The notes: generated by a model from the sequence alone, not told the origin. Shown: positions 6,534 to 55,074, counted from the stretch's first letter. The stretch: DNA of 64,000 nucleotides from Takakia lepidozioides (GCA_030704615.1 CM060732.1:32178001-32242000); one strand, 5' to 3'. Made by a program: numbers and translations.

Positions 6534-8112
6534 CTTCCTTCCTCGAGTATGTTTGTACCTTGCTATCGCAGATCTAGTGTAAATCGGTTTACTGCTGTCT
6601 CCAGAACACAGTTGAAGAATGAGCAGAGCATATGGCGGAGGAAGCTCAGATAACGACTGTGCATATTCTGTTATTCATTCCAGATATGCAGCCGTCCATT
6701 TTAATTACTTTTCTTGTGGGCCCAGTGGTCAGAGAATCCCTAGGGGCAGTGTCGGCAACTGTTAAACCGTTAATCAGAACCTCATCAATAAACCCAATAA
6801 CAAAGCCGACTTCCTGGAAGCATGCCACAGGATCTGAGAATGGGATTGCAGATTAAGTAAATGTATCTATATACTACTACCAATGATCATGCGCACCTGG
6901 AAAGTTCCAAATGTGAAACGAATGTGGGGTTTGGATAACAAGGATGACCGTGTATGATATTCCAAAATTTGTCATCAAACTCTCGTTCATTTATATTTAT
7001 TTGTTTAAGACTGCGCATCAATTTCTGGGATTCGCTGTTCTTTTTAAATATTGAACCCGTTATAATAAAGAACATGCCGTTTTTTTTGGGCGGCACACGT
7101 CAGACATCCATAACTGAATACGAACAGCTGTACACCAATTGCTGGCATGTGCACTAATAAGGAAACGACTATGTGTAACGGTCACGCGGGAGGGAATCCG
7201 ATGCTTCTAGAGACACGCAAGAACACAGGCAATCCCGCAAGAAATCGGGAGTCACTGCGTTTTTCTACTTTTCGCGCTTAGAGGGAGAGTGGTAGTCAAG
7301 CTGGAGAGGGTTCCTTCTAGAATACGAAAGAGAAGAAAGTCTCTTTATTTTACTTCCCTTAGAGAGAGACGCAGAGCAAGAGAGAAAATGACGAGGCGTC
7401 GTTTGTTGGAGAACACAGGGCCAAGGCAGCAGGTGAACGCGGAGACTGATTCACAAGAGCAGACGGAGACTGAGGCAGCGGCTGCGACACAGTCGGCGAT
7501 AAGAGTGCGCCAGCCTGTGGAGGCAGAGATGAATCGTAGGGACACTGAAGAAGGTGGAAGCACGCGGAACGCCGAACCTGAAGAAGGTCAAGAAACCCTT
7601 GCGCAGACAGAAACTCTAGCAGATGTGAGAGGGAAGAGGAAAGCTGCAGAAGGGGATCAAATTTCAAAACCTAAGAAGGTGCCAGTAAGTTTTATCATAT
7701 AGTCTGTCTGATTGCCTTTCAAGGAGTCCTTCCTCTTCCATTCTTTAGCAGGAACTACTGAATCGCGAGCGTCGTTAACGCCATTCGATTCTCCTCATGA
7801 GATTTATGTACCTATGTGTTTGAAGAGAAAGTCTGCACTTACTATTCTCCCTAAACTACAATGATTGTCGTTGCCGCCAATCAGTCGCACAGGGGGCTGC
7901 TATTTCATGAGCGGCATGAGCATGAGCGGAAAAAAAAAAAGCATGAGCAGACCATTGTCAGTCCACGGAAATAGGGTTAGGAGGCACGGAAATAGGGTCA
8001 TGTGAAGTTGGAATGTGGCACCAGTGGACTTAAAATGCAACATTTTATTGCAAATTTTGTGGCAAGCCACGTCTATACAAGTGTGTTCTAACTGTCATAG
8101 CCGGAATGGGCA

Positions 8113-11100
8113 CTACTCTCCTACACCCTCCGAGGAACTTGCCCCACCTTCTTCCTCATCCCCCTCATCCCCCTCATCCTCCGAGCTCTGTGATGCATCA
8201 GTTCCACTATGCCTCTCAAAAATCCCGTCCTCTCCTTGGGGGACTGTCCACCTCACCTCCTGGGAATCTTCTGCGTCTTCTCCCCCACTTTCCTCAGCAG
8301 AATCCAACACAAATCTACGAGCCCGACGGGCTCTAATAGCTGCTGCCTCCTCCCTCATCTTCATTTTCTTGAGGCTTGCCTCGTCTAAAATCTGCTGTAC
8401 ACGACTACGTTCGGAACACCTCCTAATGGACACCGAAGCAAGCCGGGCAGCATAAGTAGGCAGGATGTACTCCCTTTCTGGACTAGGCATGAAATCTCCC
8501 CTGGCAAAAAAAGGCACGTTCCTCCTGCCCATGAACTCCGGTGTAGACGTCCCTCCGGCAGTACTTGGCATCCTACAGTAAGAACAAATCCACTTGAAGA
8601 ATGTCAATACCAGCACAACCAGAAAGGGTTTTCAATGAAATAAGAGAGCGGAGGGAGGTGCCTCACAAAATCTGGAGGCAACTTACAATGCCACCACTCA
8701 CTCGTAAACCGGGGGCTCCTCGGCCTCGATCCCAACTTCCTCCCCCTGCTCCTTCTCGGATTTTTCCTCATCCTCCGAGGATGCCTCTTCCTCTTTCAGC
8801 AGACGTTCAGCCGCTGCAAGTTCCGAGTTGTGGAGGGCAGTATCTGGCTCGAAGGCGAACACATGCCTGTCGGACAACGTCCCTGCCCACATTGAAGCAC
8901 CTGAGGAACAAAGCGGGCGGTTAATAGCTTGCGGCATGCAATTGCAATGGGGCCAGGGGACAAACTGAGCACGTGAAGGCTTACCCGTGCCGCATGTGAG
9001 GTCCAGAATCCGCCCTTGGACATCCGAGCACGTCTCCATGAGGGTTTGGATGAAAGCAGGGCTTCGGGTCCGGCTGTACCGCCACGGTTTGCCTGTCTTT
9101 GTGTCCTTCGGCATACTAGAGTGGGGCACATAGTTGTAGAGGACATCGTAGGTTACAGGGTCCACAGCGGCATCAACAAGACGACCGTCGTTGCGGAATT
9201 TGAACGTAGACCCTCTCTTCACAAAGCAATATGCCTCAAACACCAATGTCTGCACATCCAACAAAGAAGGGATCAATTCCAGGGTCTACTTAACATACAC
9301 CACAATATGAAGTGAATGCAATAGATTGATAACTTACACTTTGGCCCTCTGTTCGCAACCCCTGCGTACTGATGCAGAACCATTTTCTGAGGAGGACCGG
9401 GGTGACACTTTTCGGTGTCCACCTTGCCACCGCATTCTCTGTGGTCTTCCCTCTCGTGGCAAGGACAACCACACATCCACCGTCATCCAGAAGCATCCCC
9501 GCCAGCCCAAACCCGGCTTTCCAGTAGTCCTCAGTAAACCTGTTCCAGGTGGGCACACCATCCAGGCCCTCCAGCAGCTCCCCATCTGGAATGTCGAGGA
9601 GAATCATGTCGCAAGCTCTCTCCACCTCAACCCCCCCCCGAGTGCTCTTGCAATTCGTGCTCACAGCCGTGAAGAATTCCATCATGGCTTCAAAACCAGG
9701 GGTGTCTTTAGGCTCTGTACCGGCAGCCCTCTTCTTGGCTTTCCCCTTCTGCTCCGCCAGAGACTTGTTGTGTGCCACCTTCTTCGCCCTGGCAGCGAGA
9801 GCGTCAAGGAAGCTCTCATTGACGCATTGGATGATGGTTGGAGGTTCTAGCTTTGGCCTGTGCGTAAACGTCACCGCCGAATACCGCCGTGTAGGCTCGC
9901 CCTCAAATGCCAACTTCTTGGCAGAGCCAGTCCCACTCCGAACTGACTTGGGAACCCGGACGACCGGTGACTGGGTAGGAGCAACAGCAGTCGCAGGACC
10001 TTGAACAAAATCGGCGTCGGAGTCACTCTCTTGGGTCCCCTCCTGCGCCTCCTCCGATGCCCCGATGGTTTTCTTCTTTTTGGGTGTTACTGCAGTCACC
10101 TGTTTCCTTGTCCTTTTCCTTTGACCTTTACTCTTCTCATGCAATTTCTCCTGAATTCCTGCCTGAGCAAGCTCTGCCGCTTTCCTGGAGTTCGCAAGCG
10201 CTTTTGCCTCTTTTGCACCCAACGGAGGCAGCGGAGCCCGGTTTCGTCGGAATTCAGCATCCAGCTTCAATTGAAACTCGGATGGGTCGAGCGAGCCGGG
10301 CGGAAGGTCCACATACCAAGGGCAATCACGCAAATGTTCCAGATGCCACTCCTTCACAATATCGTCAGTGTACATGGAGTCAGCCCCAGGGTTCCTCCAT
10401 GCCAGGAAGAATGGTGGCTCGAAAGACAGATGACCTTTCTCCAAAAGCGAGAACTTACAGTACCTGCATTCATGAAAAACCCAATGAGGTCCGAAAATGG
10501 CTAACTCCCTGAACGGCAATAGGGCCTACAACTGGAATATGGCGCCGAATTTCCACTTCAGGGCCACCCAGTGTAGGGACTTAGCCCGAAAATGGCTAAG
10601 TCCCTGGACGGCAATACGGCCTGGAACTGGAAAACGGCGCCGAATTTCCACTTCCGGGCCAGCCACCCTAGGGACTTAGACCGAAAATGGCTAAGTCCCT
10701 GGACGGCAATAGGGCCTGGAACTGGAATATGGCGCCGAATTTCCACTTCAGGGCCAGCCAGTCTAGGGACTTAGCCCGAAAATGGCTAAGTCCCTGGACG
10801 GCAATAGGGCCTAGAACTGGAATACGGCGCCGAATTTCCAGTTCCGGGCCAGCCACCCTAGGGACTTAGACCGAAAATGGCTAAGTCCCTGGACGGCAAT
10901 AGGGCCTGGAACTGGAATATGGCGCCGAATTTCCACTTCAGGGCCAGCCAGTCTAGGGACTTAGCCCGAAAATGGCTAAGTCCCTGGACGGCAATAGGGC
11001 CTAGAACTGGAAAACGGCGCCGAATTTCCAGTTCCGGGCCAGCCACACTAGGGACTTAGCCCGAAAATGGCTAAGTCCCTGAACGGCAATAGGGCCTGGA

Positions 11101-14100
11101 ACTGGAAAATGGCGCCGAATTTCCAGTTCCGGGCCAGCCAGTCTAGGGACTTTGCCATTTTCGGAGCCCTGACTGGAAATTCGGCGCCATTTTCCCTAAC
11201 ACCACTTAGGCCTCTAACATCCTGAAATGCCAGGACTTGAAAGAAAGGCAGCGCGTATGTACCTGTACAGAAGGCGCATTGCTGCTTTGTCCGCGTTCGG
11301 CTGGTCGGTGAACTCGTGGCTCCGGCGAGCATCTGCTATCTCCCGAAAGAATAGGTTGGTTTTGTAGAGCAGAAAGTACCTCGTCACATAGTCACGCAGG
11401 CTCTCTGCTGCAGGAGATATCTCCATCTTGAACTGATGTGCTTGTGTGTCCAGCTGCTCTTGCGCATTCGTCGTCACCTGTGGAGATTGTCCATCAGATC
11501 GCTTTCCTCAAAAAATACAATGAATCAACCCCCTACTAGAGTACAAGCCCCAAACGAAGCGTGGGGAAGTACCTGAAACCACCATGTCATGCGGTTCATC
11601 CACATGTCGAATGTGGGGTCAGAGAGTTTGTCCGGTTTGGGGAAGCTCCACATGTCCCTGGTACTTTGGGAACCATTCCAGATTTGGAGCCACCGGGTCT
11701 GTCCAACCACCCAGCATATTCGTAAGCGCCAAACACCACAAAAAGGAGTTGTTGCCACCACAATTTGGTTAAGAATGTATCACCTTTTCTGTTGCATCCA
11801 CACAGGATGTGGCTAGACGATGGAGCTTCTCCAATGTCATCGTGGGCTTCAGAGCGCGAGAGTAGTGCTTTCCCACCTCCACCAGAAAGTCGGCACCAAG
11901 GGCGGGATCAGCTATGGCCACGTACTTTACCATCCGCGACTTGTACTTTATGCGGGCCCTCACCTCCGCAGCTTTGACATACGATTCGAGTTCCGGGAGG
12001 GTTGGATTCTTCTCCTCTGACTCCATGTAGAACCTCCGCGCATGTGCCAAATCCTGCTGTATTTTCGTCTGTCGAAAAGCAGCACATAAGATTAGAGATC
12101 CTGCTCAACACAATTTCTTCTATTGGGGGGAGAGACAAATTAGCTCAACAAAACTGCAGGAGCTTTACCCGAAATATGTAGTCCACCATGGCGTCGACGC
12201 TCAGCCTATACCAGGTTCTGTCTGCCTTTGCCTCCGACTTGCGCAGGAGGTCGGCACTGAGGGAATTGGCAAACTCTTCCACCCCCTGCCTCCCGACATC
12301 CTTCACTCGGAAGAGCATATGGGACAAGTTGGTGGCAATGAAGGCATTCTCAGTCACCCTGCAGTGCCACATTTCCATCAAACAATACTGAAATGGGAAT
12401 TTTCATCATATATGAGGATTCGCAATGAAATGACTTCCAAATTCAAAGTCCAAAAGCGAGAGGGGTTGTAGCTTACGAGTTGATGTCGGCCATTGCAGCT
12501 TTGAGAAGACTGCGATCTTTGGGCCCCGCAACCTTCAGCACAACACAATCGACGGCGAAATGCCAATCGAGATCGTTGGGGTGGGCTTGGGCAATGTGCT
12601 CCATCCATGCCAGGAGGCGATGATTGCCGTCCCACACGTAGAACATCTTACCGGACATGTGCTGGAAAAGAGGATCACTAGCAATCGATCTCTCGAACTC
12701 CTCATTTCGCGTTTGCCAATGGGGACCCCATTTGTCCACCTCATCGGAAGTGTGGGCACGGGAAGCTCCGTGGTCGTTCTCAATGGAAACGTAAAAGGCG
12801 GCAGACCCCATTCGATATCCATCCCGGAAAGAGAATTTCAGCTTGTCGATATCGCCTGGGAGGGCAGGTCTCACCACCTGCAATGACACCAAGCGGCAAA
12901 GGGGAATTCGAAGCTTGGCCGGGTACACCATGCCCCCCAGCACCCTGCCAATGTTGCTGTGGGTTGCCTCCAACATCTTGGCAGCGGCCAACTTCATATC
13001 CGCCTCAGACATGACGTCTGCTGCAGAGGGGTTTTCCGGCAGCCCACCAAGACCGCCAAATCCAGCCTGTATGCTCCGGGTTTGGGGCCTGGGGATGTCC
13101 GGGAGAATGTCATCCTGGTCAGAAACATCCATGTCGTCCTCCTCAACAGGGTCAGCCACCTGCGAAACCACCTCCAGCACTCTCGTCGTCTCTACTGCCC
13201 TCTCCCTGGCTTCACCTCGAACTTGCACAATCGGTGCTCTTTCAGGTGTTCTTTCCTCTCCTCCACTCTCCACCGTATGGGTAATTGCGGGGGCTGCACT
13301 TGCCCGCGATGGTCTAACCGGTGTGCTACTGCCTCTCTGTGGTGTCTTGTAGGGATCCACCGTCTCTGTGTGTCCCTCGCTTACATTGGCATCTGTCATT
13401 TGGGCACCCCTGGCCTCTTCAGCTGCCTTTTGTCTTTCCTCCTTGCTAGCATTCTGTCTCGTCTGTTCTTTTGCCCTCTCTTTTGCCCTCTCACGGGCTT
13501 TCTGTTTCTTACTAGGGCTAGCAACAGGGGAGCCCTCCAGGACGACCACCTTTGATTGAGGCGAACTGACACCCTCGCGCGCACTGCTCACTCCCCCCTC
13601 CGCAGCCCGTGACTGCTCTCTCGCCGGGGATTGCATGTGCTTAGCTTTCTTCTTTTTCTTTGCGTGGGCGGGCCCTACTGCATGTGCATGAACAACCTCC
13701 ATTGCCGGATCTGCTGTCCTCATGTCCTCACGCCCTTCACCTGCCATGCCGCCTGCACCAACCTCCCCAATGCCTACTCTATCGTAATCTCGTTGCAAGT
13801 CCTCCCGTCCACCAACAAAAGATTTAAGTTTGCCCTCTCGCCCCAAGTTGGGCGATTCAAACATGCGATGAGTTGGAGCTGTCGATGATACCACCAGCGT
13901 GCCGGGCTCGTCGTCACTCTGTGATTGACAAAAATCGTGAACACCAACAGTGGTGCAAAAAGCAGCAGCGCAACCACCATAGCAGCAATCATGTAGCAAA
14001 AATGAAAACATAACAAGTTTAGGAAGTATGGAGAGCCATGCAACAACAATGAAAACAAATGCAACCATTGCCTAAGAATGACATGCACAAGCAGCCTTCT

Positions 14101-14343
14101 CCAGAGCTGCCGGATTTGCACACGCATTGCAAACAATCTAAGGTTCAGTCAACTATCTAAAGTTCACTCATAAAGCAAAGCCAGGATGAAGATGCAGAAA
14201 CAAAGCGAGGTAACGAAGCGAAAGCAAAAAAAAAATCGAACAAACCGAAAGCAGAAGTGGCTTGCCTGAGAGTACTCGGCTTCAGTTGGCGCAGGTTGTG
14301 AGCAAGACACTGGAATCTCCTGCTGGAGCTTCAGTTTGGCCAT
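8113..14343 (-). CDS. inner-element ParB/Srx-like domain fused to a beta-class N4C/N6A DNA methyltransferase fold; spliced, roughly 1,400+ aa, apparently intact
   Basis: Exons ~13920-12477, 12358-12169, 12068-11784, 11698-11573, 11477-11263, 10463-9338, 9249-8985, 8900-8702, 8572-8113. All eight GT-AG junctions are phase-compatible. YVWDGNHR (12617-12631), MILLDIPDG (9581-9595), LLDDGGCVVV, RSPAFIQTLMETCS..GRILDLTCGTGAS..RHVFAFEPD. The 5' start is uncertain. Confidence 0.82.
10491..11155. repeat. 7 x 95-bp tandem repeat (190-bp dimers) inside an intron of the ParB-MTase gene
   Basis: CCGAAAATGG at 10491, 10586, 10681, 10776, 10871, 10966 and 11061. Each unit has GGCGCCGAATTTCC and an inverted CTAAGTCCCT..AGGGACTTAG pair. 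Confidence 0.95.
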
Positions 14344-14669
14344 GCGAGAGATTGGCCGTCGTCCGTAGTACAGAGCTTTCAACTTCCGCCGCGGTCTGGA
14401 TCTGAGGTCTCTCTCAGGAGAGCCACGCCCTTCAGGCGGCATAAGTCCCAGCCAAAAAGATCTCCTTTTTTGGGGTACATGCCTGGAATACCATGTTAAG
14501 CCAAGTATAGCATGAGATTTAGGGTACGTGTCCAGGAAGCCATGCGTCGCCAGCCCGAATAATAACCGACGGCCGTCGACATTTATTGCCCAACTGCGCA
14601 ATTAAATGTCGGATGAAGCCCTCCATGTCGGAAGAAAATAGACGAAAACAGTCCCGGAATTTCCCTCAT

Positions 14670-15100
14670 GCAGGTAATTCGGAAGCGCCCGGATGGAAAT
14701 CCGGCGCCGAATTTCCATCCGCGCAGGTAGGGCGGTGCGCCAAATTTCCTTCAAGCAGGTAATTCGGATGCGCCCGGATGGAAATCCGGCGCCGAATTTC
14801 CATCCGCGCAGGTAGGGCGGTGCGCCAAATTTCCTTCAAGCAGGTAATTCGGATGCGCCCGGATGGAAATCCGGCGCCGAATTTCCATCCGCGCAGGTAG
14901 GGCGGTGCGCCAAATTTCCTTCAAGCAGGTAATTCGGATGCGCGCGGATGGAAATCCGGCGCCGAATTTCCATCCGCGTAGGTAGGGCGGTGCGCCAAAT
15001 TTCCTTCAAGCAGGTAATTCGGATGCGCCCGGATGGAAATCCGGCGCCGAATTTCCATCCGCGCAGGTAGGCCGGTGCGCCAAATTTCCCTGAAGCAGGT
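14670..15100. repeat. 5 x 85-bp tandem repeat with near-perfect palindrome GGATGGAAATCCGGCGCCGAATTTCCATCC
   Basis: GGATGGAAAT at 14691, 14776, 14861, 14946 and 15031. Confidence 0.95.
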
Positions 15101-16720
15101 AATTCGGCGCCGAATTTCCATCCTGCAGGTAATTCGAATCGTGGATGAATGGAAATTCGGCGCCGAATTTCCATCCTGCATGTAAGTCGGATCGGTGCCA
15201 TATGGATATTCGGCGCCGAATTTCCATCCTGCAGGTAATTCGAATCGTGGATGAATGGAAATTCGGCGCCGAATTTCCATCCTGCAGGTAAGTCGGATCG
15301 GTGCCATATGGATATTCGGCGCCGAATTTCCATCCTGCAGGTAATTCGAATCGTGGATGAATGGAAATTCGGCGCCGAATTTCCATCCAGCAGGTAAGTC
15401 GGATCGGTGCCATATGGATATTCGGCGCCGAATTTCGATTCGCCATTTATTTCTGAGCGAGGAATTACCTTCGTGCAGGTAATTCCCAAATAAGAATTAC
15501 CTTCGTGCAGGTAATTCGCATACAAGAATTACCTTCATGCAGGTAATTTCCAGATGAGAATTACCTTTGTGCAGGTAATTCTGGACGAGGAATAAACATC
15601 GATTGGAATTACCTGCAGGAAGGTAATTGTCATCTGGAAATTACCTGCACGAAGGTAATTCTTGTATGCGAATTACCTGCACGAAGGTAATTCTTATATG
15701 GGAATTACCTGCACGAAGGTAATTCCCCGTTCAGAAATAAATGGCGAGTGGAAATCCGGCGCCGAATATCCATACGGCACGGATCCGACTTACCTGCTGG
15801 ATGGAAATTCGGCGCCGAATTTCCATTCATCCACGATTCGAATTACCTGCAGGATGGAAATTCGGCGCCGAATATCCATATGGCACCGATCCGACTTACC
15901 TGCTGGATGGAAATTCGGCGCCGAATTTCCATTCATCCACGATTCGAATTACCTGCAGGATGGAAATTCGGCGCCGAATATCCATATGGCACCGATCCGA
16001 CTTACCTGCTGGATGGAAATTCGGCGCCGAATTTCCATTCATCCACGATTCGAATTACCTGCAGGATGGAAATTCGGCGCCGAATATCCATATGGCACCG
16101 ATCCGACTTACCTGCTGGATGGAAATTCGGCGCCGAATTTCCATTCATCCACGATTCGAATTACCTGCAGGATGGAAATTCGGCGCCGAATATCCATATG
16201 GCACCGATCCGACTTACCTGCTGGATGGAAATTCGGCGCCGAATTTCCATTCATCCACGATTCGAATTACCTGCAGGATGGAAATTCGGCGCCGAATATC
16301 CATATGGCACCGATCCGACTTACCTGCTGGATGGAAATTCGGCGCCGAATTTCCATTCATCCACGATTCGAATTACCTGCAGGATGGAAATTCGGCGCCG
16401 AATATCCATATGGCACCGATCCGACTTACCTGCTGGATGGAAATTCGGCGCCGAATTTCCATTCATCCACGATTCGAATTACCTGCAGGATGGAAATTCG
16501 GCGCCGAATATCCATATGGCACCGATCCGACTTACCTGCTGGATGGAAATTCGGCGCCGAATTCCATTCATCCACGATTCGAATTACCTGCAGGATGGAA
16601 ATTCGGCGCCGAATATCCATATGGCACCGATCCGACTTACCTGCTGGATGGAAATTCGGCGCCGAATCTCCATCCATCCGAGATTCCACTTACCTGCTGG
16701 ATGGAAATTCGGCGCCGAAT
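15100..16720. repeat. large inverted-repeat array: 53-bp monomers (106-bp dimers) on both sides of a symmetric 4+4 block of 24-bp palindromes
   Basis: ATGGAAATTC at 15801, 15854, 15907 and onward (~18 monomers to 16720), with ~6 inverted monomers at 15100-15435. GAATTACCT-N6-AGGTAATTC at 15462, 15494, 15526, 15558 and 15606, 15638, 15670, 15702. Unique spacer 15582-15605. Confidence 0.95.
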
Positions 16721-16770
16721 CTCCATCCGGGGATGGTCTCTGTCGGAGAGGTGCCGCCTCTCCGCCGCTC

Positions 16771-17370
16771 TGTTGGATATTCGGTGCCGAATTTCCGTCC
16801 CGGGGGTTGAAATATGACTGCCAGGTTCCGTCCTCTCCCCCCTCCCCGACTTCATTGGAACGGCCCCGAATTGAAATTCGGCGCCGTTTTCTCATCTGTG
16901 GAGGTTTTTATGTCGGCCAGTTTTCGCTCTGACACGCCGACAACACTTCCTTTGGGGGGGCCCGGATGGAAATTCGGCGCCGAATGGCCGTCCAGGGGAT
17001 GTTCTCTGTCGCACACTGGCCGGCCTCTGTGCCCCAGGCGACTTCATCCGGGCGTCCCCTGTTCGATATTCGTTGCCGAATTTCCGTCCGGGGGTTGAAA
17101 TGTGACAGCCAACTGCAGGCCACTCCCCCCTCCCCGACTGCATCCGAATCGCCCCGGATGGAAATTCGGCGCCGTTTTTCCATCTGGGATGTTTTTATGC
17201 CGTCCAGTTTTCGGCCTGACCCCCCGACACGACTCCCTTTGGGGGACCGGATGGAAATTCGGCGCCGAATCTCCATCCAGGGGATGTTCTCTGTCGCACA
17301 CACTCCGGCCTCTGCGCCAGAGGCGACTTCATCCGGGCTTCCTCTGTTGGATGTTGGGTGCCGAATTTCC
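16771..17370. repeat. two diverged ~290-bp tandem units, each with three GGCGCC-type palindrome variants
   Basis: TGTT(G/C)GAT(A/G)TT...GCCGAATTTCC recurs at ~16771, 17060 and 17345 with collinear intervening sequence. Confidence 0.8.
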
Positions 17371-17675
17371 ATTCGGGGGTAGTAATGTGACGGCACGGTG
17401 CCGGCTTATCCCCTTCAGCCGTCATCATCCGGACGGCCCCCCACTTTCTGACTGCATACCGTTGGCAGTTATTGCGCAAAGACGAGGGGCCGCATTCCGG
17501 AGACAAGGTTCATTAACACTCTGACTGTGGATTTTTGAGATAGTTGGCTCCCTGGATTTGGATCAGGCTTCGTCGCTCGGACAAATCGGCATCGCATTCA
17601 TTCCCATCGCTGCACCCCCTTCTACCAGGGAGCTTCCCCGCACGCCATCCTGGCAGTCTTGTGTGCACATCTCCC

Positions 17676-20600
17676 ATGGCGGAAAACCCGAGCGCTACAG
17701 TGTACTGCCCTCCTCACGAGCATAGAGCTTCATTTCCGTGCAGAGGGACACCTGCCGGGTGATGGAGAAATATCTGTGCGTTCGATACCACCTGAAACCG
17801 GGGTCGGTTTTTTTTGGAGGAGGAAAGGAAGGACTCAAACGGCCTTGTTGTCGAGAGTATTGTTGTGCTCCACGATGATTTCGGCGATGGCAGGGAATGG
17901 CGAGTTCCACCATCGGACAGCGTCATATACAGGGCTGTTGGGGACTTCATTTGCCCGCCAAATGCACCGTCTATCCTGGCGCCTTCCACGAAACAATCCG
18001 CGAATCAGAGAGTGGGTACCTCAAAGAGAGAAGTCCGCAACGAAGTAAATCCAGAGCCGAACCCATCCATGAAGACGACCGAGAACCGGGTTGTTCACAA
18101 CCTGTCCGACTCAGACGAGGTCATGGAAGTTCCGAGGTCGTCCTGGAGATCAGGCAAGTCCTCAATGGACGTCAGTGGAGGAGGGAGTCATATTCCCAGC
18201 ACGAGCACCGCAGTTCGATCTATTCTAGAAATTCTGCGAGGGCTTCACCTGGAGGGACACCGGTCGGAGCTGGCCGGGCTGGACTACAGCATGTTCGCAA
18301 TTAAATCGGTTACATGCCTTCCCGCCGACGTCGACGGTAATGTCTTCTTTGAGTTCCCTCCTCGGGCGGACTACTCGAGGGCGTCCGGAATGTTGACAGA
18401 TATGGATAGAAAACATGACGGTCATCCTTGGTGCGTTACCAAAACCACCAGCATGAAGATGCTTGATGGTGTGCGGGTGCGCTACGTTGTTTGTGCGGGC
18501 ACGTTGCGGTGTTTCTCCCCAACTTGCTTCCACTTTAAATCCAGAGGTCACAGGAACGAGACCGATTGGACAGGCACAGCTCACCAACCATTTCGAGCTC
18601 AGGAAAGGTTCCGAACTCCACATTTAAGTGTGCGCATTGCAAAGAACCACCACACTGCATGTCTGTTTGTAATGCCAAGCAGTTCTATGTGTTGCACCGT
18701 TTCCCTGACCTCACCCGAGCTTGCATACACGTTGGTTCCCATTGTCACAAATTGGCGAGGGGGAACTCGCGGGAGGCTGCCCACGAAGCAGAGCAGCTCG
18801 TTCAGGAGGAGGTTAAGTTGAGACGGGGGTGCCAAAACCCAAAAAGATACAGCTCCAAGCCGCCCCATAAGATGGCATTGGCCAGATTATGTCGGAGACG
18901 GCTCGGATAGAGTTCCTCTCGACGAGAAGGAATGGAGGCATTGCTCGAGTCGGTGTCCCCCGTAGTTCATCACATCGAATGTCCGAAACCACATTGTCCT
19001 CTTGCAAACAGAAATTGGGCGTGGCCGGATATGCCACTCCATTCTGGAGGTGAAGCGACGATGTGGATATGACTACATTCGTGGAAGTAGGTTTCCAGGA
19101 CAAGGGACTGAGGCAGATCGTTGTTTCGTATTCAAAATGTCCACGTGTGGACCTGGCAGTGGCGTCGCTGGTCGACAGGATGACGAGTGGGAACTTGTCA
19201 AACTTGGGTCATGTTCGACCATATCAAGCGAATTAACAAATCACCAGTGGGTGACAATGGTGGCAGCATGTCTACGACACCCACTGCAGGATGCTAATGA
19301 CATGCTATTTGTGAGATGAAAGGAGAGGACACACAATCGGAGATGCTTCTTTGGCATGGAATAAACGACAGATGGCCAAGGCGGGATTGCCCCCTCCCAA
19401 TTTCCGTGGTTTCATGGCGGACAACGCACAAGCAATTGGGCTGCCATCCGAGGGTGTACGGGCAAGACCCCAATGTTTCCCATGGAAGGCAAGGAGAGAT
19501 CTTGTGGGTTCCACTTTCTGCAGAGCCTTTCGCATACACAACCAGGCTTCGTGGCGCCAGATTTCAGAGAGGAGCACCCGTTCCATGTGCCTTGCGTGGA
19601 AGCGCGCTCCCACCTTGGATGATGCAGAGACACAGTTTTGCATGCATACGGGCTTGGTGGACATCGTCAGGTGCTGTAAGGAAATCAGACGAAGGAGCAA
19701 TGGTCAGTTGGCTAGCATGGTGGCATTATCGTTTCCTCCAGTTCGGCGACTATATGCGGGAGGTGAGTTGCACGAATTCCTGTCCCGTTGGATATTATTC
19801 TTGCTATTTTGTAACTTGCTTTAACCTCATGTGCTTGTGCAGGAAATGTGTCTCGACTCCGACACCGACATGCCCACGACAAACATGGCCGAATCAGTGC
19901 ACTCTTCCTGGCGTGCGTCCTCTTGCGGCGCATCTGGTGGACATCCTCACTGCCACAACGGAGGACATTGTGAGGTCAATTATGCAGCAATGCAGGTCAA
20001 CATACGATTTCTTGAAAGGGAACAGTGGGGCTTGGGCCGGACAGGCAGGAAATGCTGAGGCGGACTGCCTCCAGATCGAAGAATCCTCGAGTGGGCGGCG
20101 GCCTTTGCGAGAGGCCTTCGGGACACGCCATTTCTGCGAAGAGGCCAACATTTGGAAGGAGATGTTCATACCCGTCCAGTGAGACGAAGACTTGACGAGG
20201 CACCCTGGCGGAAGAGGATTCATGGCGAGCTGACAAGAATATTCGCACGCTCCCTCGTGGTCCGGTGATGTTGTCCGAGGAGGTCTCGTCGAGCACCGGA
20301 AGTCCTGCACGTTCAAGATCGCCATCTCCTTTGAGCACAGGGCGCGTGCCCCGGCACATAAAGAGCCATCTGTAGTAAAGCAATACAACATTTCCATTGT
20401 GGAGACAAGAGTGTCGGAGTCACAGTGGAGAATTGCGAGGACATTGCGGCATTTCGAGGAAGTGTTGCGCCATCCGGGTGGATACGAGAGCACGCTGTGG
20501 TGAGATGATTCGGAGGAACCCACACGGTGCTGGTACCTGCACCTTGTTTCATCAGCGGCAGATTTTTGACTCCCACATTGCTCACGCCACAACGCAGACA

Positions 20601-21260
20601 TTTTGGTTCTGTAGGCACGACATAATGACATGTGGTATTTGGCAAGCCCAAGTACGGGATTCAGGGAATGCCGGAGCCTCCGGCGTCTGGCCTGTTGCAC
20701 CGGGTTGCAGCCCCTCTCTCAGAATGAGGCGGATGCTCTATCTGCGGCGTTTCGAATGGTGCAACGCACAGACATCCCGGCCCACGCATTTCCGGTTCCT
20801 CAGACCAAAGCCATTGCATACTGCTCGCTCCAGTAGAGACGGATTGGACAATTCTGGCACATCCCACAATGCGATTCGAAGAGTGAAGAGACGACACCCT
20901 CCCAACAAGTTGAATGAGACTCGGATTGCCAATGCTCTTGGGATGGCTTGCACTATTCAGAGCTCCGTGGACGTACCCCCCCCCACCCGGCCTTGGGCGT
21001 GTGTATCGGATGGCAACGGCCCGGCTCGGCTGTACGCGACGATGTATACACAATTACGATTGGAGTGAAGCCGACTTGCAACTGTACGGACTTCTCGTTG
21101 ATGGAAGCAAAGAAGGGTTCGAAGTATTATCCGTGCAAGCATCTGTATTACATTTACCTGAAGAGGTTGAGGATGAACTGGACTATTGATGACTTTATTC
21201 ATGCAACCCCGCGTTGAGCGTGAACGAGCTGCACAAACTCCTCCTTCTTAGGGATTCCAG
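17676..21260 (+). pseudogene. MULE transposase with GCM-like domain and SWIM finger (inner element), many small indels
   Basis: MDRKHDGHPWCVTKT, CAGTLRC, FVFKMST, FRGFMADNAQA, WLAWWHYRF, NMAESVHSSW, FWFC and PTCNCTDF..PCKHLYYIY. Collinear with the outer transposase and has the same intron position (~19763-19842). Confidence 0.85.
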
Positions 21261-21419
21261 AAATCATGATGGGGCAAACGAAATCCTCCATATGGATTTT
21301 TCAAATGCATTTTTGCTGTATCAGACTTTTTTTTTTTTTGGCAGTGTAATGAATGCACCCCAAAACTCCTGGAATGAGGCAATATTCCCATTCAATGAGA
21401 TCCAACAGAGCAGTTTTGG

Positions 21420-21665
21420 GGCCATTTCTGGAAAAATGGCGCCGAATTTCTCTTTTTGGGGCCGAAAACTCGCTAAGTCCCAACATGCACTGGTACCCTG
21501 TGTTTTGGAAAATGGCGCCGAATTTCTCTTTTTGGGGCCGAAAAATGGCTATCCCCCAACATGCACTGGTACCGTGTCTGGAAAAATGGCGCCGAATTTC
21601 TCTTTTTTGGGCCGAAAACTGGCTAAGTCCGAACATGCACTGGAAAAATGGCGCCGAATTACCTG
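21420..21665. repeat. short array (~4 copies) of GGAAAAATGGCGCCGAATTT units related to the 95-bp repeat
   Basis: Shares GGCGCCGAATTT, GGGCCGAAAA and GCTAAGTCC with the 10491-11155 unit. Further degenerate cores extend to ~21790. Confidence 0.85.
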
Positions 21666-24129
21666 TCATGAGGGGACCTATACCGCGGAAATTCGGCACC
21701 ATTTTCGCCAGAGAGACCTATTGGACCTATTGCCGCGAAATACGTCGCCGTTTTTTCAGGTTACGGACCCTATTACCGCAATTCGGCGCCATATTTGCAC
21801 ATGTCGCTAGGAATTGGCTAGCGGAAGACAAAATATCATGAGCACAACTGTCAAAGTGCAATTTTCCCTTCAAGGGCCAATAATTATTTGGTTTTTCTGA
21901 CACATTGCATAAATTTGTTTTTTTATTGTTTTTTTTTTATTGTTTTTTATGTGTTTTTATTTTCGAAATTTGTACTTCTGCTCATGAAAACCGATTGTGT
22001 TACTACTCTGCTCATGCCGCTCATGCCGCCGCCTGCCGCTCATGCTCATGAAATAGCAAACCTCGTTGCACATATATGTCATTACACAACACCGATCCGG
22101 CAGGTTGTTTCTTTGTGATTGTCGTTACAGCCGTTCCTATCGCTCTCGCTCGCTTTGTTTTGAATACGGCAGTCTCGGCTTTGCATGTGTAGATTGTGCA
22201 ATTCTTTCACACCATTCATGGTGAGTTTCCTTGATACAGAGTGATTGTCGTTACCCCCATACCGATACCGCCATTTCTATTTGCAAATCACTTAGTCAGA
22301 ACTGATGGCATCGTTCAGAAACTGTGAGGTCGAGCCTACAGGATCAGAGGGAAAGGATCTGGAGATGGGGACGAGTCCGCAAAAAGCTCAGAGAATACAG
22401 ATGAAGCAGATGAATCCGAAGTGCACTACCTTGACAAGGTGAAAGAACTCATGTCATTCCAGAAGGTAAACTCTCAGGAGGTTATCAGGAGGTGACATGC
22501 CGTATCTGGAGGGCGTCTGGAAGCCTCTGTGCCGGATGATATCAATGCCTGTTGTGCGTCACTCTTTCTCCCATGACATAACAAAATTGGAGAGTGATTT
22601 TGTGCATGGATATAGACTTGGTGCACAGTTTTTTATGTGTCACTGACGGATATAATGGGGAAAGCACATTAGTTTCTCCAGAGATCAGATGATACCTGGG
22701 ATGATGCTGGAAGATGCCAATGAGAGTTCGAGCTGGCCTCATGATGGGAAAGAACACCCAGCATTCTGGCAACCACATGTTCTAACGTCTGGGACGCAAC
22801 CAACCGATATCTGGCAATGGATGGATACATTCAGAAACACCATTCGAAAGACAAAGACAAGCATTTTGCTGTGGAGGCAATGGTTTTGGATCCGGAAACG
22901 ACATCGCTAGCTTCTTACAGCTACCCCGTGACAAGTAAGTCATCCAGGAGATTTGATTCCCTCTGTAGTGTCTTGTTAATCCTCAAAAAAAGGTGTTAGA
23001 ATGCAATGTTTCCAATGTTTTTGCAGATCAACAGAGAAGATCGCATGTGACAACAAGCTTGGTTCACACACTATTCCGAATTCAGAGGATTGGTCTGATG
23101 AGCTGGATGATTTTCGGACAGTACTACCACCCAATATCATCAAAAGTGCGAAACAGGAAGAGCTGCAGGCACTTGGTATTCTTTGACACGAGAGGCTTTT
23201 CTGGAGTACATGTATGCGGTAAGCCCGAGTCTGTAACTGTTTACTTTTCGAATACATGTTTTAGAGTCCCTTCGGAGCTAATCACTACTTGAATGAATGC
23301 AGCAAGAACTGGCAGAGGCAGCTGAGAAGGAAAATCCGAAATTTCCGCACTACACCAGAGGACTAATGACATCAAAGGTGTGGAAGCTGCAATAAAGAAG
23401 GAGTTTGAGATGCGAGAACAATTGATGTCAGCTTCGGAAAGCAGCTTAGAATAGTAGATCCTGGACTTGGTCCTGAGTTCCTTCATCAGCAGATCAAACA
23501 CACTATGACAAGCATGTGCATCCGGAGATGCAGCAGGAGAAATTGCACCGGCTGGCCATATCGATGGTCGACCCACAAACAAAAATAAGGTGGCTGGAGA
23601 TATGGAACTCAGATCAAACAGTAAAGGACTTGAATCAGTTCCCAAGAGCACCATACAGCCTGGCACACAAGGTGGAAGGAATTAGTGATTTGGTGTTTGA
23701 TAACTGGCTCCACAAGGCTACATTTTGGAGTCAGGTGTGTATTCGAACATGCTGTTTCTTCTCTCTTCAGTATGTGATGTGTATCTTTTTTTGCAATCTG
23801 ACAAATATACTATTTGCAGCTCGAAAAGCGCGTCGTCATTGTGCTGGATCAGACTTTGAAGGACCTGAACATTGCGATTGTTTCCCTCCCCAAATGTCAT
23901 TGGAGGCACCATAAGGAAGTGGAGAGGTCTCAACACCTGGAGATACTTTTTTTCCGGGAGTTCTCCAAAGATGGAGTAACATTTTACGTCGTCAACGACT
24001 TTGACAGTCAGTTGGAGGAGAGTGGGCCATGAGCGAGTTGTGTACAGGTGCAATGTCATATTTGAAACTCTACTACTGTTTTGTTGGAAAAAATGTGGCT
24101 TCATATGGATTGCAATCTTAGATCCAGAT

Positions 24130-24845
24130 TGAATGTCATTGACGACATTCACTTCTTTGTCTAAGTCATTCTTAGCGAGTATATGAATTCACCTGTTTAG
24201 GATCTAAGGGTGCAATTATATTGTCCCTGATTAGAATTGATAATGTCCTTGAATGGCGTTGACGACATTCACATACGGAGGTTGTTGAGAGGTCCTCAAG
24301 TTATTTAAATTTTTGTAATGTCCATAGAGGTTACAGTGAGGGTCCTCACTTCATTTTGCTGATGTCAGGCAGACATTCAGTTGTTCTGCATTGTTTTTTC
24401 CTCTTGCGATGAATGTGGAGGCTTGATAGCTCTGTTTTAAGAAATCCAAAGTGAAATGTCGTTGACGACATTCACAGCTGTGTCTGTATTATTCAAAAGC
24501 GACAAATTCAATTTAATGGATTGGGGAGCTAAGTAATTGGTTTCTTTTTGTATTTTTTGGGATGGCGTTGACCCATTCACATACAGTGATGTTTGTGAGG
24601 TCCTCAGTGATAGGTTCGTTATGAATGTGCATTGAGTTTTCCTGGATGGTTCCTTAATCAATTTTTTATTTCCATCCTGTGATTTTGCTTCATTAAGTAA
24701 TAATTTGGCTTCATTCTTGATGTCGTTGACGACATTCACTTCTATGTCGTGTCATTTCTAATCGATTATTTGCATTCACCTGGATTAGGATGATTTACAG
24801 TGTCATGGAATGAATGTTCTGAATGGCGTTGACGACATTCTATCT
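24130..24845. repeat. dispersed array of the outer element's palindrome GAATGTCGT-TG-ACGACATTC in an intron
   Basis: Copies at ~24131, 24251, 24454, 24561, 24719 and 24821, plus a degenerate one at ~24361. Confidence 0.85.
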
Positions 24846-27800
24846 GGAGCAGTAGTGTGGTCCTGAAAGGTCCTTGAGCAAGTTGTCAGAGCCATTTCAA
24901 TCCATGTTTTATTCTTTCTGTTCTACTTGCATCTTACTCACTGAGCGTTTTTGTGGGTTGGGATTTATCTCCTTTTTTCAGGTACACGAAATATGTGCTT
25001 ATGGAAGGAAATCACCTGAGCGGAATTCCCGACTATCTTGACATGTGGTCGGACCCTGCAAACGATCCAACCATGTATACTGCAGGGATATTGAAGGACT
25101 GGAGTCCTTCTCACTTCAGAGACTGTGGGTGGTACCTTGACTGCCCACCTGAGCACACGACCTTTCAAGAACAGCATATGAAATACTTGAACAATAACGC
25201 TGAGATGCTGGCGCCTTTGACTGACGAAGAGTATCAACGAAACATAGCAACCTTGGCTGCCAAGGAGCCTGATGCTCAGGGAACGCCGCAGAAGGGAAAG
25301 AAGGCGGGCCGCAAACCAAAAGACAAGGCTGTTGATGTCATAGCCATCTCACCAGCAAAGCCAAAGGACAAAGACAAGTCCAAAGAGAAGGAAAAGGACA
25401 AGGGGAAGGAGAATGAAAAGGAGATGGAGAGTGGGCAGGACTTTAGTGCTGGAAGATATACCCGTACTCTTCAGTTCGTGTTCGATGCCAAGCCACACCC
25501 TTCCCGTTCTGATTCAGCAGGAGAGATGAAAATTGTTTCGATGATGCAGAGTCGAAAGAGAGGATACACTGGGGTGCCATCCCCTACCTGGGACAATATA
25601 ATCTCATTCCTCAATCTGGTGAGAATTCCAGTTACTTTCCTTTTCTCTGAAAGTTTCGTTGGCAGTATTTCAGTCTCGTTCTTTGAAAACATTCTTGCCA
25701 TCGTTCTTATAAAAAACATGTCTGTTGCAGGTGAGCACAGGTCCCACCTTCGTATGCGGTGTGCAGAAAACTTATGCGGCCGACATTGTCATTCTCGACA
25801 TCCCGGATGGCCAGGCTGTGCCAGAAGTTCTTCAAGGGCAAGACGCCAGGCTGGAACAAATTCGAGGACAACTACGGGAGTTGGGTGTTCGGGTTCTGTA
25901 ACAATTTCCTCTCTGATGCAGGGACACTTCTGCTTTTTCAGTCATGTGACAATGATAGTCGTCGGGCATTGGCATCATACCTCAAGTCTTCAGGGTTTGA
26001 AGTTTTGCGCACATGGAATTGTGTGAACAGCCTCTACCTTGTGAAAGGGGGTTTCCCTGGTCAGCTGGTATGCCGTCTCCCTTCTGCTTGTGCTTTGATC
26101 ATGAGTTTCAATTTCTCTGCAGCTCCACTCTAGTAGAATGTTTTATGATCGACACCGATCATCAACGATTCATGATTTTTTGTGTGTCAGAGTTCTGAAT
26201 AGCCGATGTACACACTTCCACTTTAGATTGTGTTTACCACACTAACCTGCTATCTTTGGCAGACGAGGATGTTCGAGGCGATCTGCCTGCAGAGGATTCG
26301 CACATCAAAGACACCATCCTCCATCCGCAACTTTGAGATTTCTGACCAGGGTTGTTTCGTCAAACCCCCCTATGAGCCCCATGTCGATGACATTTTGTAC
26401 AACTTCATGCAGTCTAGTTAGACTCTGAAGAGACCAGATGGCACTCCCTGGAGAGGTGCAAAGGAAAAGTCACCAGCATTCATGCAAATACTGCTGGAGT
26501 CATGCAGCCACCGCTCTGCACGGGTGGTCGATCTTTCTGTGTCCACAGGTTCGTTTTTTCCCTTCCGAATTGGTTTCCTTTCAACAGTTTCATCTGCTTA
26601 AATCCCCCCTCCAAACTGTTCATGTTCTCCTGTCTGGTGCAGGAGCAACTTACCACGCATGCAAGGCAGGCGGAAGAAGCCTTTTTGGCATGGAGGGTGA
26701 TTCTGACCTCTACAACACCGTGCTCTTCCCCCTTTTGTCTGGCTCCACTTCAGGCACACAGACTGATCGGATTCAAATTCGAAATGATGACGATCCCGAA
26801 GATAAGCAGGTCGACAACGACTTTTCATGTGAGTAAGTGCTAAACCCTCTTTGGGAGTCATACTCAATTTCTCGATAACATCAAAGTTACAGTAATAACT
26901 TTTTCAGGCTGTCTTTCAGGAAAGCCAGCGGTGGATCTTCAGGAGATACAGTCATTTCTGGCAAGTCTGTTTTTGACAGCCCCCTTTCCAATTTTCTGCT
27001 CCCTGTTTATGCCGAAGCAATGGCACTTCACGCGGCCGAGTCCCTATCCCCTGACTTTTTAGTGGCCAGCCGTAGGTGTATCCAGCGTGGATCCGGTGTT
27101 CTAAAATACTTAGACTTAGATGCAGAGGAAGAGGGGATACATTGTACTGACTCTGAGTCAGACTGAACTGTATTCTTTTAATATTCATTTTCATATTATC
27201 TGGAAAACGTTGAATCCCCTTCCTCTACCGTAGTTGTTCCTTTAGAACAAATAATAATCACAGAATCAACTTTCGTTTAAATTGCTATTGTATGAATCCA
27301 TCTCACAAACCTTCCTGACTCTTTTCATATCCATTGTGCATTCATCTACACTGTATTCATGCGTGCTCCATTCATGAAAGCTTCCTTTGTACAACATCCA
27401 TTGTACATTCATCCTCTGTACTCTTTAATCCACCCCACAAACCTTCCACACTCATTTCATATACTTTGTGCATTCGTCAAAAGATTTGGTCATGCATCTT
27501 CCTGTCATGAATTTTTGTCATTGCTCAACATCCTTTATACATTCATCCATTTTACTCTTATCCATCCGTCATTCATCCATCTACATACATTTTCCACACT
27601 CATCCATCTGTTTATCATCCAACTGTACATTCATCCATCCTTTATTCAATGCCTTTTATTATGTCGTCCAGCTTGTTTCCGCGGTAAAGGGTGCCAATCC
27701 GCGGGAATACACTCCACTTCTTTCTGGGTGCGTGGTGACTTGGCCTTCACGTGTGATGACGTGGACTGAGCCCCGTGACGTGGCATTTGCGCAAGGTGAC

Positions 27801-29127: not shown

Positions 29128-30999
29128 TACACACCGGCCGCACTAGCCTTGGCAGCAGGAGTCAATGCTGCACGTGTAGCTCTCCCCAATGGCATAGTAA
29201 CCTCCGCCTCGGTAACAGTCGGGCGAGAACTAGGTGCCATGGATGGCGTCGACACAGTCTCCGCCAATGTGAATGACTGAGGCAGCCTTGCCTGACGGCT
29301 TGCCTCCCCACGTTGTGGATCCAACGCCACCTCTGCACCTCGTGGCTCAGGAACTCGTGCTGCTCCTCGAGTCACGGCTGCAGCAGACTCCATTTGCTCT
29401 AGTGGTAGTGCTGCTCCGCACATGAATCCCATGCCTCCCATATCTCCTCCCTCAGGAGCAGGAGGTGGACCATCCCACCTGGGAGCCGTACCGCCTGAGC
29501 TATAGCCATGGCAGCGAGCCTATGCTCTAGCTGCTGAAGCCGATTGGCCATGCCTTGGTCAACACCCTGACCTCCGCGTCCTTGGCCATGTGGAGCTTGC
29601 CCTTGGCCTGCACATCGTGCCCGACCACCTCGTCCTCTTTGGGCTGGTCCACCTCGCCCCCGGCCACCATTGTTCCCTTGGAACTGGCCTGGGCGCAACT
29701 CAGGATGCAAGTCATAACACTGGGGCATCTCCATGCCCATACTTGCCACAATGCCCACATGCAACTGTGCAGGCTGTGCTTGTGCCGGCCTTTTGCCACT
29801 CTCTGGGCAATCTCTCTTGACATAGGGTCCTCCACATGTCCAACATATCACCCCTGGTTGTTGTTGGCCTGCAAAAGATGCCACGGGCCTCTGCACCTGA
29901 GGTCCCCTGTAAGCTCCATGGAACTTGGGCTGGGCAACCTTGCCCCCCTGACCACGCTGTTGGGCAGTCCCTTGTGCTTGTGGGCTGACAGCTGTGCCCC
30001 GTGCAGGCATGTCCTTGCCAAATCCAATTGTAACAACTCGCTCCTCCACCATGTTGAGCTCAATCCGCTCAGCCAGCAAAAACACATCTGCTAATGTGGG
30101 TTGGGCTGCTTGTAACAGGGTTGCATCTCACACCCTTCTCTTGAGCTCCTTGTCCAGAATTCCATACCAAAACTGGATTGCCTGAGCTTTAGTAATCCCT
30201 TGGGTCACACTTATCAAGCGCCTTATACGAGTGTACGCCTCTCGCAGGCTCTCACTGGGTTTGCGCTGGAAGTCTTGCAAACTTCGCAGCTTCTCTGTCC
30301 GTACACCTTGGTAGTTCCTCCGCAATTCCTGGAAGAACTCCACCACCGGGTTGAATCTAGGCACATGTGTTGTCGTCGTGGCAGGAGGAGTAGTAGCACC
30401 TTTTGAACTGGTACCACCTGCGGAAGTACCAGCACTACTTGCTCCACTACTATGCTGGCAGTGGGAGCTATTGGTACTGATGCAGCTACTGGTCGCGTCG
30501 TGCCTCGAGTAATGGAGACGTAGTCAGGTGACCAATACATCCTCCACTCCTCAATCTCTGCTTCATGTCCTCGCCTGAACTCGTGGTAATCGTCCATAGG
30601 CGGGCCTTCCAAATGCTGGAACAGTCCCTTCCACGCCATGAATGGGGTGAATAGCTGTGGATTGCGCATCTGCTGCAAATCACACCAGCTATCGAACTCC
30701 TGGATAAAGTCATCCAACTCAATTGTGCCCACAGCTCCAGAGTACCTACAAGGCCCCTTGGTGGCTCCATACATCTCCTCCATGTCGTCCCACAACAATG
30801 GCGAATGAAAGTGCACACCTGTTGATGAAGCCTCCGAGTCTGTGTCTGACTCTACAGTAATTGAGGGTGGCGGTGAAGGTGGTCTGAACCGACTACCTCG
30901 TCTTGTGAACCCACTCTCACTGTTACTGCCTGTAGCTGTACTCCCCTCAAAACCTTTGGGTAGCTCCGTAATGACACTCACAATGTGCACCTCCTCCAC
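29128..30999 (-). pseudogene. gypsy gag (frameshifted)
   Basis: ELDDFIQEFDSW, LQDFQRKPSESLREAYTR, QFWYGILDKELK, knuckle CWTCGGPYVKRDC and a Gly/Arg-rich stretch, spread over several frames. Confidence 0.8.
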
Positions 31000-54560: not shown

Positions 54561-55074
54561 ATGATGCTGTCGTGCGCGGAGGAGATGGTGCAGTGCTCGG
54601 ATGGTGCAGAGGGAGGGGGGATGGAGAGGGAGAGCAAGAAGGCGAAGAGAGACATGGACGAGATGACGAAGGAGAAATCTCAGGAATGGGCGGACTCCTC
54701 CATCGTGGCGCTACTGGACATCTATGAAGAGAAATGGAATTATTTGAAGCGGGGAAACCTAAGGAGTAGGGACTGGACTGACCTGGCTGTCCAGGTGAGT
54801 ACACGTTGCCATGGCCCCAAAGCGGCCAAGACGGCGTCCCAGTGCAAAAATAAGATCGAATCGATGAAGAAGAAGTACAGGGCGGAGAAGCAGAGTAAGG
54901 TGACGACTGGCACCGCGCCGCGATGGAAGTACTATGCACGCTTGGACAGTATGCTGTGTGGTGCTTCCCCTCCGAAGATGCTCAACGTTTCTGCTCCGCC
55001 GGATGTCAGCCGGCAGCCAGCTGTTATTGATCTGGATTCGCGCGAGGGATTGGCTCAGGTGGAAAGTGGAGATT
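54561..55074 (+). CDS. trihelix (Myb/SANT-like) DNA-binding protein, first coding exon
   Basis: EWADSSIVALLDIYEEKW..LRSRDWTDLA..KTASQCKNKIESMKKKYRAEK..WKYYARLD. Donor GTGAGT at 55075. Probable further exons ~56210-56418 and 56736-56971. Confidence 0.85.

Follow-up and report, generated by a model that had tools for sequence, protein, structure and literature searches.

Two diverged methyltransferase-like (MTase-like) genes in a 64,000-nucleotide stretch of the Takakia lepidozioides genome (GCA_030704615.1, CM060732.1:32178001-32242000; hereafter the window) read DIPDG at the place where DNA amino-MTases are expected to carry a motif IV ending in a base-stacking aromatic residue. The locus raises the question whether DIPDG is truly motif IV and, if so, whether such a domain still methylates DNA or serves another end. 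The genes are referred to as inner and outer; the transposon carrying the first appears to sit in the 5' part of the second.

Two MTase-like genes with DIPDG at motif IV

The original prediction of DIPDG in both genes was confirmed, on the minus strand for the inner gene, a strand that it had not given, and on the plus strand for the outer one (Table 1). The motif I readings that it had reported, DLTCGTG and DLSVSTG respectively, are also present, and in both genes motif I lies downstream of DIPDG, in later exons. Across all six reading frames of the window chance would yield 0.019 occurrences of DIPDG; two were seen. The two sites are homologous, their host genes have intron positions in common, and silent differences separate the copies at three of the six LDIPDG codons. 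The MTase domains share 36% identity (79/219 aligned residues). Since an identical run of six residues anywhere has a probability of about 0.26 at this identity, the shared pentamer is in itself unremarkable.

Table 1 Positions of the features described, counted from the first letter of the window
Feature	Position	Strand	Remarks
Inner motif IV, DIPDG	9581-9595	minus	aa 1094 of the gene model; in register with DLPYG of phage beta-class MTases
Inner DIPD codons	9584-9595	minus	G codon 9581-9583
Inner WNRF	9536-9547	minus	loop 3' of motif IV; W in 36/37 family rows
Inner motif I, DLTCGTG	9003-8985	minus	finished across intron
Outer motif IV, DIPDG	25797-25811	plus	DIPD 25797-25808; spliced contig of a sibling copy spans the site
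Outer motif I, DLSVST(G)	26530-26548	plus	
Inner gene (ParB-like, helical, beta-class MTase-like)	8113-14071	minus	nine GT-AG exons, model
Inner exons 1-5	14071-12477, 12358-12169, 12068-11784, 11698-11573, 11477-11263	minus	
Inner exons 6-9	10463-9338, 9249-8985, 8900-8687, 8572-8113	minus	
Inner exon 7	8985-9249	minus	motif VIII-like FEA, R-SPAF (K of HPTQKP), motif X, motif I DLTCGT(G)
Inner exon 8	8687-8900	minus	motif II (FAFEPD), acidic tail, TGA 8698-8700
Inner DGNHR	12617-12631	minus	in N-terminal domain of the protein
Inner element	7892-22064		14.2 kb; inverted termini, 8-bp target duplication
Left target duplication and terminal inverted repeat	7884-7911		duplication 7884-7891, repeat starts 7892
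Right terminal inverted repeat and target duplication	22045-22072		repeat ends 22064, duplication 22065-22072, 7/8 match
Mutator-like transposase, broken	17796-21214	plus	C-terminal SWIM finger
Seven 95-bp repeats, GGCGCC-centred palindrome	10491-11156		inside inner intron 5
Central arrays (85, 53/106, 32, 285 bp), palindrome GAAATTCGGCGCCGAATTTC	14658-17391		between divergent genes
74-bp repeats with inner GGCGCC-centred palindrome	21427-21643		
Five copies of the other palindrome, AATGTCGTNNACGACATT	24132-24839		in outer intron 24050-24981
Outer gene (ParB-like, MTase-like), pseudogene	22300-27166	plus	homologous to inner protein along its length
Outer gene, probable first exon	~7389-7690		placed by inference
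Outer frameshift	25839-25843	plus	between DIPDG and WNKF
Outer in-frame TAG	26419-26421	plus	inside MTase domain

Four junctions of the inner gene model are backed by RNA-like contigs and the upstream four follow from splice signals and homology; its 5' end is not defined. The contigs belong to a run guessed to be RNA, no listed source being recorded as RNA. They skip the introns 9250-9337, 8901-8984 and 8573-8686, so both introns that flank exon 7 are spliced out, and they continue from 10466 into the exon at 11263. One contig of 770 bases links the motif IV exon to the exons of motifs I and II. The reading frame is open until the TGA of exon 8, 12 bases before the last splice donor and behind the MTase domain, which is unaffected; an open last exon of 150 codons is cut off. 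This TGA is likely premature, because the last exon is open and matches that of the outer gene.

The fusion proteins of the window measure about 1300-1490 aa. DGNHR in the inner N-terminal domain is a motif that we take to be ParB/Srx-like. Atlas features of this domain gave DUF3723 (0.90) and ParB_N (0.86), with recognition below threshold, and Pfam and PDB sequence searches with the domain returned no match. A ParB-type, DNA-binding domain is likely on these grounds, which amount to a lead and not to proof.

The outer gene is homologous to the inner one across its ParB-like, helical and MTase regions. A frameshift about 30 bases after DIPDG and stops make it a pseudogene. Spliced contigs of sibling copies cover the outer-type DIPDG. 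The ends of the element that carries the outer gene were searched for and not found.

Motif IV in the plant family

A profile built from 67 phage beta-class MTases scored the spliced inner domain at 12.2 bits, against 2.1 for the best of 500 shuffles, and aligned the inner DIPDG to DLPYG. In the reverse test 60/60 phage proteins were matched (median 8.2 bits, best 21.3; best of 600 shuffles 3.3). Profile-profile comparison of the plant family with phage MTases by hhalign was colinear at 96-98% probability; it set FE against HE of motif VIII and R/K-SP against the HPTQKP lysine, and also matched motif I and motif II. Motif IV precedes motif I, in the colinear order IV-VIII, X, I, II of beta-class N6A/N4C MTases (PF01555). 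The Pfam model PF01555 (gathering score 26.7) had no match in the window exons, and two homologues reached 13-14 bits, below the cutoff. Atlas features of the bare motif IV exon gave PF01555 at 0.91, independent of the fold model. Neither [DNSH]PP[YFW] nor a terminal aromatic of the DLPY type was found at motif IV of the two window genes. By profile register DIPDG is the motif IV of a beta-class amino-MTase domain, in exact register and with the stacking aromatic absent. The expectation of a non-canonical motif IV in an amino-MTase fold was thereby upheld, and the family rows point the same way.

Among 1.84 billion representatives, the family search gave 17 matches; two of these, P0006 and P0020, are unrelated repeat proteins and were dropped, which left 15 true homologues, and cluster look-ups and a profile search added more. 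P0029, P0030, P0040 and P0043, with the motif I half only, were dropped from the 37 family rows, which include the two window proteins and near-duplicates. Named members belong to the fern Adiantum nelumboides and the moss Ceratodon purpureus.

The consensus of motif IV over the 37 rows is D-h-P-x-G; at x, 31 rows have D/N/T/S/E, five have F/Y and one has I (T 11, D 10, N 7, F 4, S 2, E 1, I 1, Y 1). Position 1 is D in 33 rows and N in two; Pro is found in 29 and Gly in 35. The aromatic is missing in 32/37 rows, which represent 13 of about 14 lineages and both moss and fern proteins. The canonical motif, found in five rows only, is not the majority form. DIPDG itself, which had been put forward as the conserved feature, did not hold as a family motif, being exact in 3/37 rows; D at position 4 is if anything overcounted, because the search query held DIPDG.

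The five F/Y rows (P0012, P0017, P0021, P0044 and P0045) read DLP[FY]G, followed by WD and not WN. They form one clade (99/98), nested among T/S rows in the best tree, and joining them to the phage outgroup was rejected (p-AU 0.004). The tree was built on 22 of the 37 family rows and on five of the ten outgroup sequences, the other five being unaligned at motif IV, and its alignment omitted the aromatic column and the column after W. It is to be read with a short alignment, a long outgroup branch and a tested group that was named after an earlier tree had been viewed. Since the F/Y rows nest inside T/S rows and the phage grouping was rejected, loss of the aromatic is likely old and family-wide, dating to the ancestor of the family. 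Loss in the ancestor and possible regain of the canonical motif in one subclade would be the simplest reading; several independent losses are possible too.

Outside motif IV, K/R stands at the HPTQKP lysine in 7/7 rows covering the site, the motif I Thr in 8/8 and the acidic motif II residue in 6/7. The motif VIII Glu is present in both window genes. DLTCGTG and FAFEPD of the inner gene fit motifs I and II, and in other rows the two motif I glycines have drifted, to S, N or to S, L depending on the lineage. In the plant family other residues stand in place of the His-Pro of HPTQKP. The loop before W is longer than in prokaryotic and phage beta-class MTases, and the register of this W with the phage WD is ambiguous, being paired by HMMER and left unpaired by hhalign and MAFFT. 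The close relative P0022 (NIPDG) was called through an in-frame intron, at the position of the inner intron between the motif IV and motif I exons.

These data bear on whether the MTase domain is a relic without a present role, decaying while the ParB-like domain ahead of it remains useful. As would be expected of a relic, lesions occur in both window copies, and many of the database rows are fragmentary, probably from dead copies, with motif erosion in some. Against it, the domain has kept its colinearity, both between moss-type and fern proteins and between the two families of the window, whose domains are 36% identical; 50 of the 76 identical residues in these domains use different codons, and D, P, G, W and SP(A/T)F are conserved. 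This reading is considered very improbable.

Searches for relatives elsewhere gave little. When exons of the window served as queries, word-based protein searches had no match; two metagenome scans revealed no relatives, and neither did a prokaryote genome scan with P0022. No match was obtained by tblastn on phages or in the PDB by sequence, and the PDB searched by profile gave weak SAM-MTase matches only. These negative results are weak evidence. The pattern D-h-P-D-G occurred at 18 loci of viral contigs, and the phage profile recognised none of them as a beta-class MTase (best 3.9 bits). On a 720-kb viral contig (L132:3-1910, minus strand), a type I HsdM/HsdS-like protein (Methylase_S, E 5.8e-4) has DIPDG at the expected site of an NPPF-type motif IV. 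No further relatives of this protein were found, and its DIPDG is likely convergent.

Active site, palindromes and candidate function

The fold was modelled on the fern homologue P0016 (DFPTG; pLDDT 75.7). Its first matches were M.BceJIV, M1.MboII, CcrM, M1.HpyAVI, N4CMT and M.PvuII (Z 17.8-15.3), and its predicted fold matches the circularly permuted Rossmann fold of beta-class MTases. The model is not fully independent of these enzymes, since 29 of the 60 alignment rows are canonical phage enzymes that pull it to the beta-class fold; two of the 60 rows are faulty (an outer-gene row in the wrong frame, the exon 7 row misplaced). The window's own motif IV exon gave a poor single-sequence fold (pLDDT 49.9). 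In the P0016 model a strand ends on the motif IV Asp, which puts the motif at the end of the catalytic strand and not away from the active site, in keeping with the original prediction.

In CcrM, Tyr34 stacks the target adenine, which is bonded by Asp31, the Pro32 carbonyl and Lys193 (PMC6787082), and in N4CMT the target base is stacked by Tyr110 (PMC10406627). Changing Tyr to Ala or Gly lowers the activity of M.TaqI and type III MTases (PMC3036652), and the double change of SPPY to APPA abolishes that of N4CMT (PMC8885841). The N4CMT cofactor is bound by Ser283, Thr285, Asp301 and His253, and aromatics of the loop after motif IV (Tyr127, Tyr130 and Trp142) line its site (PMC10406627).

The downstream WN(R/K)F had been suggested as a source of a compensating aromatic. 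This was not borne out: W occurs in 36/37 rows, including all five F/Y rows, F stands at W+3 in 12/37, and the full motif is found in two. As a compensating novelty the motif was rejected, W being common to the rows that keep the aromatic. It is more likely that the invariant W lines the SAM site than that it replaces the stacking residue, since loop aromatics do so in N4CMT and the family keeps Asp, Lys/Arg, Thr and mostly the acid.

This pattern could also mean altered chemistry, the SAM pocket serving an acceptor for which base stacking is not required, such as RNA, a small amine or the side chain of a protein, or the transfer of another group from SAM. The base-stacking residue is selectively lost with the SAM side kept, and an acidic residue at position 4 would suit a cationic acceptor. 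D at that position is confined to 10/37 rows, however, the domain is fused to a likely DNA-binding domain and its closest folds are all DNA MTases. The inner element also contains no partner or substrate gene, and a changed acceptor seems improbable.

The element itself is bounded by inverted termini, and its empty-site junction was found in seven DNA contigs. The transposase lies head to head with the MTase cargo gene, on the plus strand against the minus strand, and carries indels relative to sibling copies. Its SWIM finger scored just above the cutoff (19.8 bits against 19.6; E 5.6e-4); its broken pieces had no MULE match in Pfam, and motifs that we take to be MULE-like were read by eye. 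Target duplications of Mutator/MULE elements are typically 9-11 bp; that of the inner element, a single insertion, is 8 bp with one mismatch.

The two genes carry different palindrome families in corresponding introns, outer intron 24050-24981 being the counterpart of inner intron 5 (10464-11262). The 20-bp GGCGCC-centred palindrome has 44 matches, all within the inner element, where 0 are expected; the outer palindrome has five close copies in the outer intron, against 0.15 expected in the window at three mismatches. Different palindromes in the same intron of two related genes suggest element-specific binding sites, and the ParB-like part is the putative binder, its ParB assignment being a lead only. 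The central 106-bp array, within 15102-16726, forms a large inverted repeat with 480-base arms (97%) and a centre near 15594.

The reading that we prefer, with a probability of about 45%, is a pseudo-methylase that retains its SAM pocket and binds its own element. With the base-stacking aromatic gone, the MTase domain would be weak or inactive, its motif IV loop presumably rebuilt as a P-[DNTSE]-G turn. The ParB-like part and the helical region behind it would recognise the palindromes of their own element. The MTase-like part, probably as a dimer, would grip the DNA and may still bind SAM, holding a flipped base too poorly for normal N6A/N4C methylation. The protein would thus coat the element's palindromic repeats. 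Its benefit would be self-recognition and not methyl marking, either as an aid to transposition or by maintaining an open state over the arrays and the divergent promoter region. The family-wide loss of the aromatic, the lost His-Pro of HPTQKP, the drifting motif I glycines and the palindrome family in each intron all argue for this reading. It is weakened by the motif IV Asp in 33/37 rows, the W in 36/37 and the retained SAM-pocket residues, since polar residues of this kind are expected of an enzyme; the DLP[FY]G/WD subclade further shows that a canonical site is one step away.

The same residues support an active DNA amino-MTase with a rebuilt catalytic loop, writing 4mC or 6mA on its own palindromes. 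In such an enzyme Asp and the backbone carbonyl would orient the amino group, another residue would replace the aromatic, and ParB targeting would offset a low rate. The catalytic Asp, Glu and Lys/Arg and the SAM-binding Thr and acidic residue are kept from moss to fern; position 4 is confined to D/N/T/S/E in 31 of the 32 non-aromatic rows, showing no free drift; spliced transcripts span motifs IV to I. Activity has also been proposed in print for algal relatives (PMC12477816). A compensating aromatic specific to the non-canonical rows was not found, however, and in the enzyme literature cited above the aromatic is regarded as required.

Composition of the repeats was also considered. The CpG observed/expected ratio is 1.31 in the central arrays and 0.85 in the transposase, against 0.64-0.68 in the inner gene, 0.58 in the outer gene, 0.64 in the neighbouring retroelement and 0.38-0.75 elsewhere. 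CpG is kept in the palindrome core in 44/47 and 30/32 half-site matches. Transitions are few in the 95-bp array (10 against 21 transversions) and in the 285-bp pair (12 against 28). A duplicated pair at 43-45 kb has the opposite bias (70 against 43), and a pair at 62 kb also has few transitions (2 against 13). Protection confined to the arrays would agree with these data; protection of the element as a whole would not. Element-wide shielding from 5mC, a broad form of the role that had been suggested for a binder, was rejected, as the inner gene body (0.64) is depleted like the neighbouring retroelement. CpG retention in the arrays and the low number of CpG transitions there speak for an active enzyme, but in young, homogenised arrays the retention fits selection for a binding site as well. 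On balance an active enzyme is judged somewhat unlikely.

A broader proposal joins these elements. From moss to fern, transposon MTases without the near-universal aromatic would be guided by ParB to their own palindromes and write there 4mC, 6mA or another SAM-derived anti-silencing mark, the fern-type subclade having regained DLP[FY]G/WD. Taken as a whole it is rather unlikely. The family pairs natural forms of a single domain without the aromatic (DIPDG, DLPTG) and with it (DLPFG, DLPYG), and one locus with two elements and different palindromes in the same intron supplies defined candidate substrates. If the protein is active, it would be an amino-MTase that departs from the textbook motif, and land plants would have a 4mC/6mA mark written by a transposon. 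An inactive protein would correct the assumption that ParB and MTase cargo genes methylate DNA.

Related systems and neighbouring genes

ParB and MTase domains as transposon cargo have already been published from algae; the motif IV variant appears to be new. Sola1-1_Ec32 of Ectocarpus has a ParB-like and N4C/N6A MTase accessory gene opposite its transposase, with similar proteins in green and red algae (PMC12477816). As described there, its product is also a large fusion (1104 aa) encoded on the strand opposite the transposase of a large DNA transposon, and is proposed to bind and modify its own element. By description, the present case differs in being in a land plant, in a Mutator-like element and with a motif IV without the aromatic; the available text of PMC12477816 says nothing on motif IV of the Ectocarpus protein.

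In red algal Plavaka elements, PAG2 and PAG3 likewise bring a beta-class methylase and a ParB domain as cargo (bioRxiv 10.1101/2025.02.11.637652). PAG2 combines a PF01555 methylase with SET and PAG3 a ParB domain with a 2OG oxygenase; tandem inverted-repeat arrays beside the ParB gene are proposed there as its binding sites. There ParB and methylase are separate genes, whereas here they form one protein, in which no SET or oxygenase domain was found.

M.BceJIV, M1.MboII, CcrM, M1.HpyAVI, M.PvuII and the phage DLPYG family share the fold, motif order and colinear profile of the plant family. Unlike these prokaryotic and phage enzymes, the plant proteins have no motif IV aromatic, a longer loop before W, a replaced His-Pro of HPTQKP and scores below the PF01555 cutoff. 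Bacterial-type beta-class domains also occur in eukaryotes as rotifer N4CMT, which is fused to a chromatin-targeting domain (PMC8885841, PMC10406627), and as Marchantia MpDN4MT1 (bioRxiv 2021.02.12.428880). Both are described as host genes with intact SPPY and demonstrated activity, whereas the plant family is transposon cargo with D-h-P-x-G, read from sequence.

METTL14 and the DIRS1 retrotransposon MTase, the latter also transposon-borne, are precedents for inactive amino-MTase domains, with a broken catalytic motif and the domain kept (PMC4738411). They belong to other clades; the plant family differs in largely keeping the catalytic Asp and SAM-pocket residues, and no active partner of it is known. 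A search of mainly open-access literature returned nothing on the land-plant family or its motif.

Other genes of the window were also noted. A C5 cytosine MTase domain (PF00145, E 1.4e-13) at 1915-2502 on the minus strand lies just upstream of a gypsy-type RT, the RT/RNase H region being at 3-1331 on the same strand. This seems to be a retrotransposon carrying a DNMT in a land plant. Captures of DNMT by retrotransposons are known from algae. Further open reading frames (30131-30523, 35601-36659, 54549-55133 and 59783-62146) include gag, a second RT, a Myb/SANT-like and a ubiquitin-like sequence and an NPH3/BTB gene, whose NPH3 and BTB matches at 60-62 kb give the window a eukaryotic, land-plant-like character. 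The Myb/SANT-like frame is presumably of Harbinger type.
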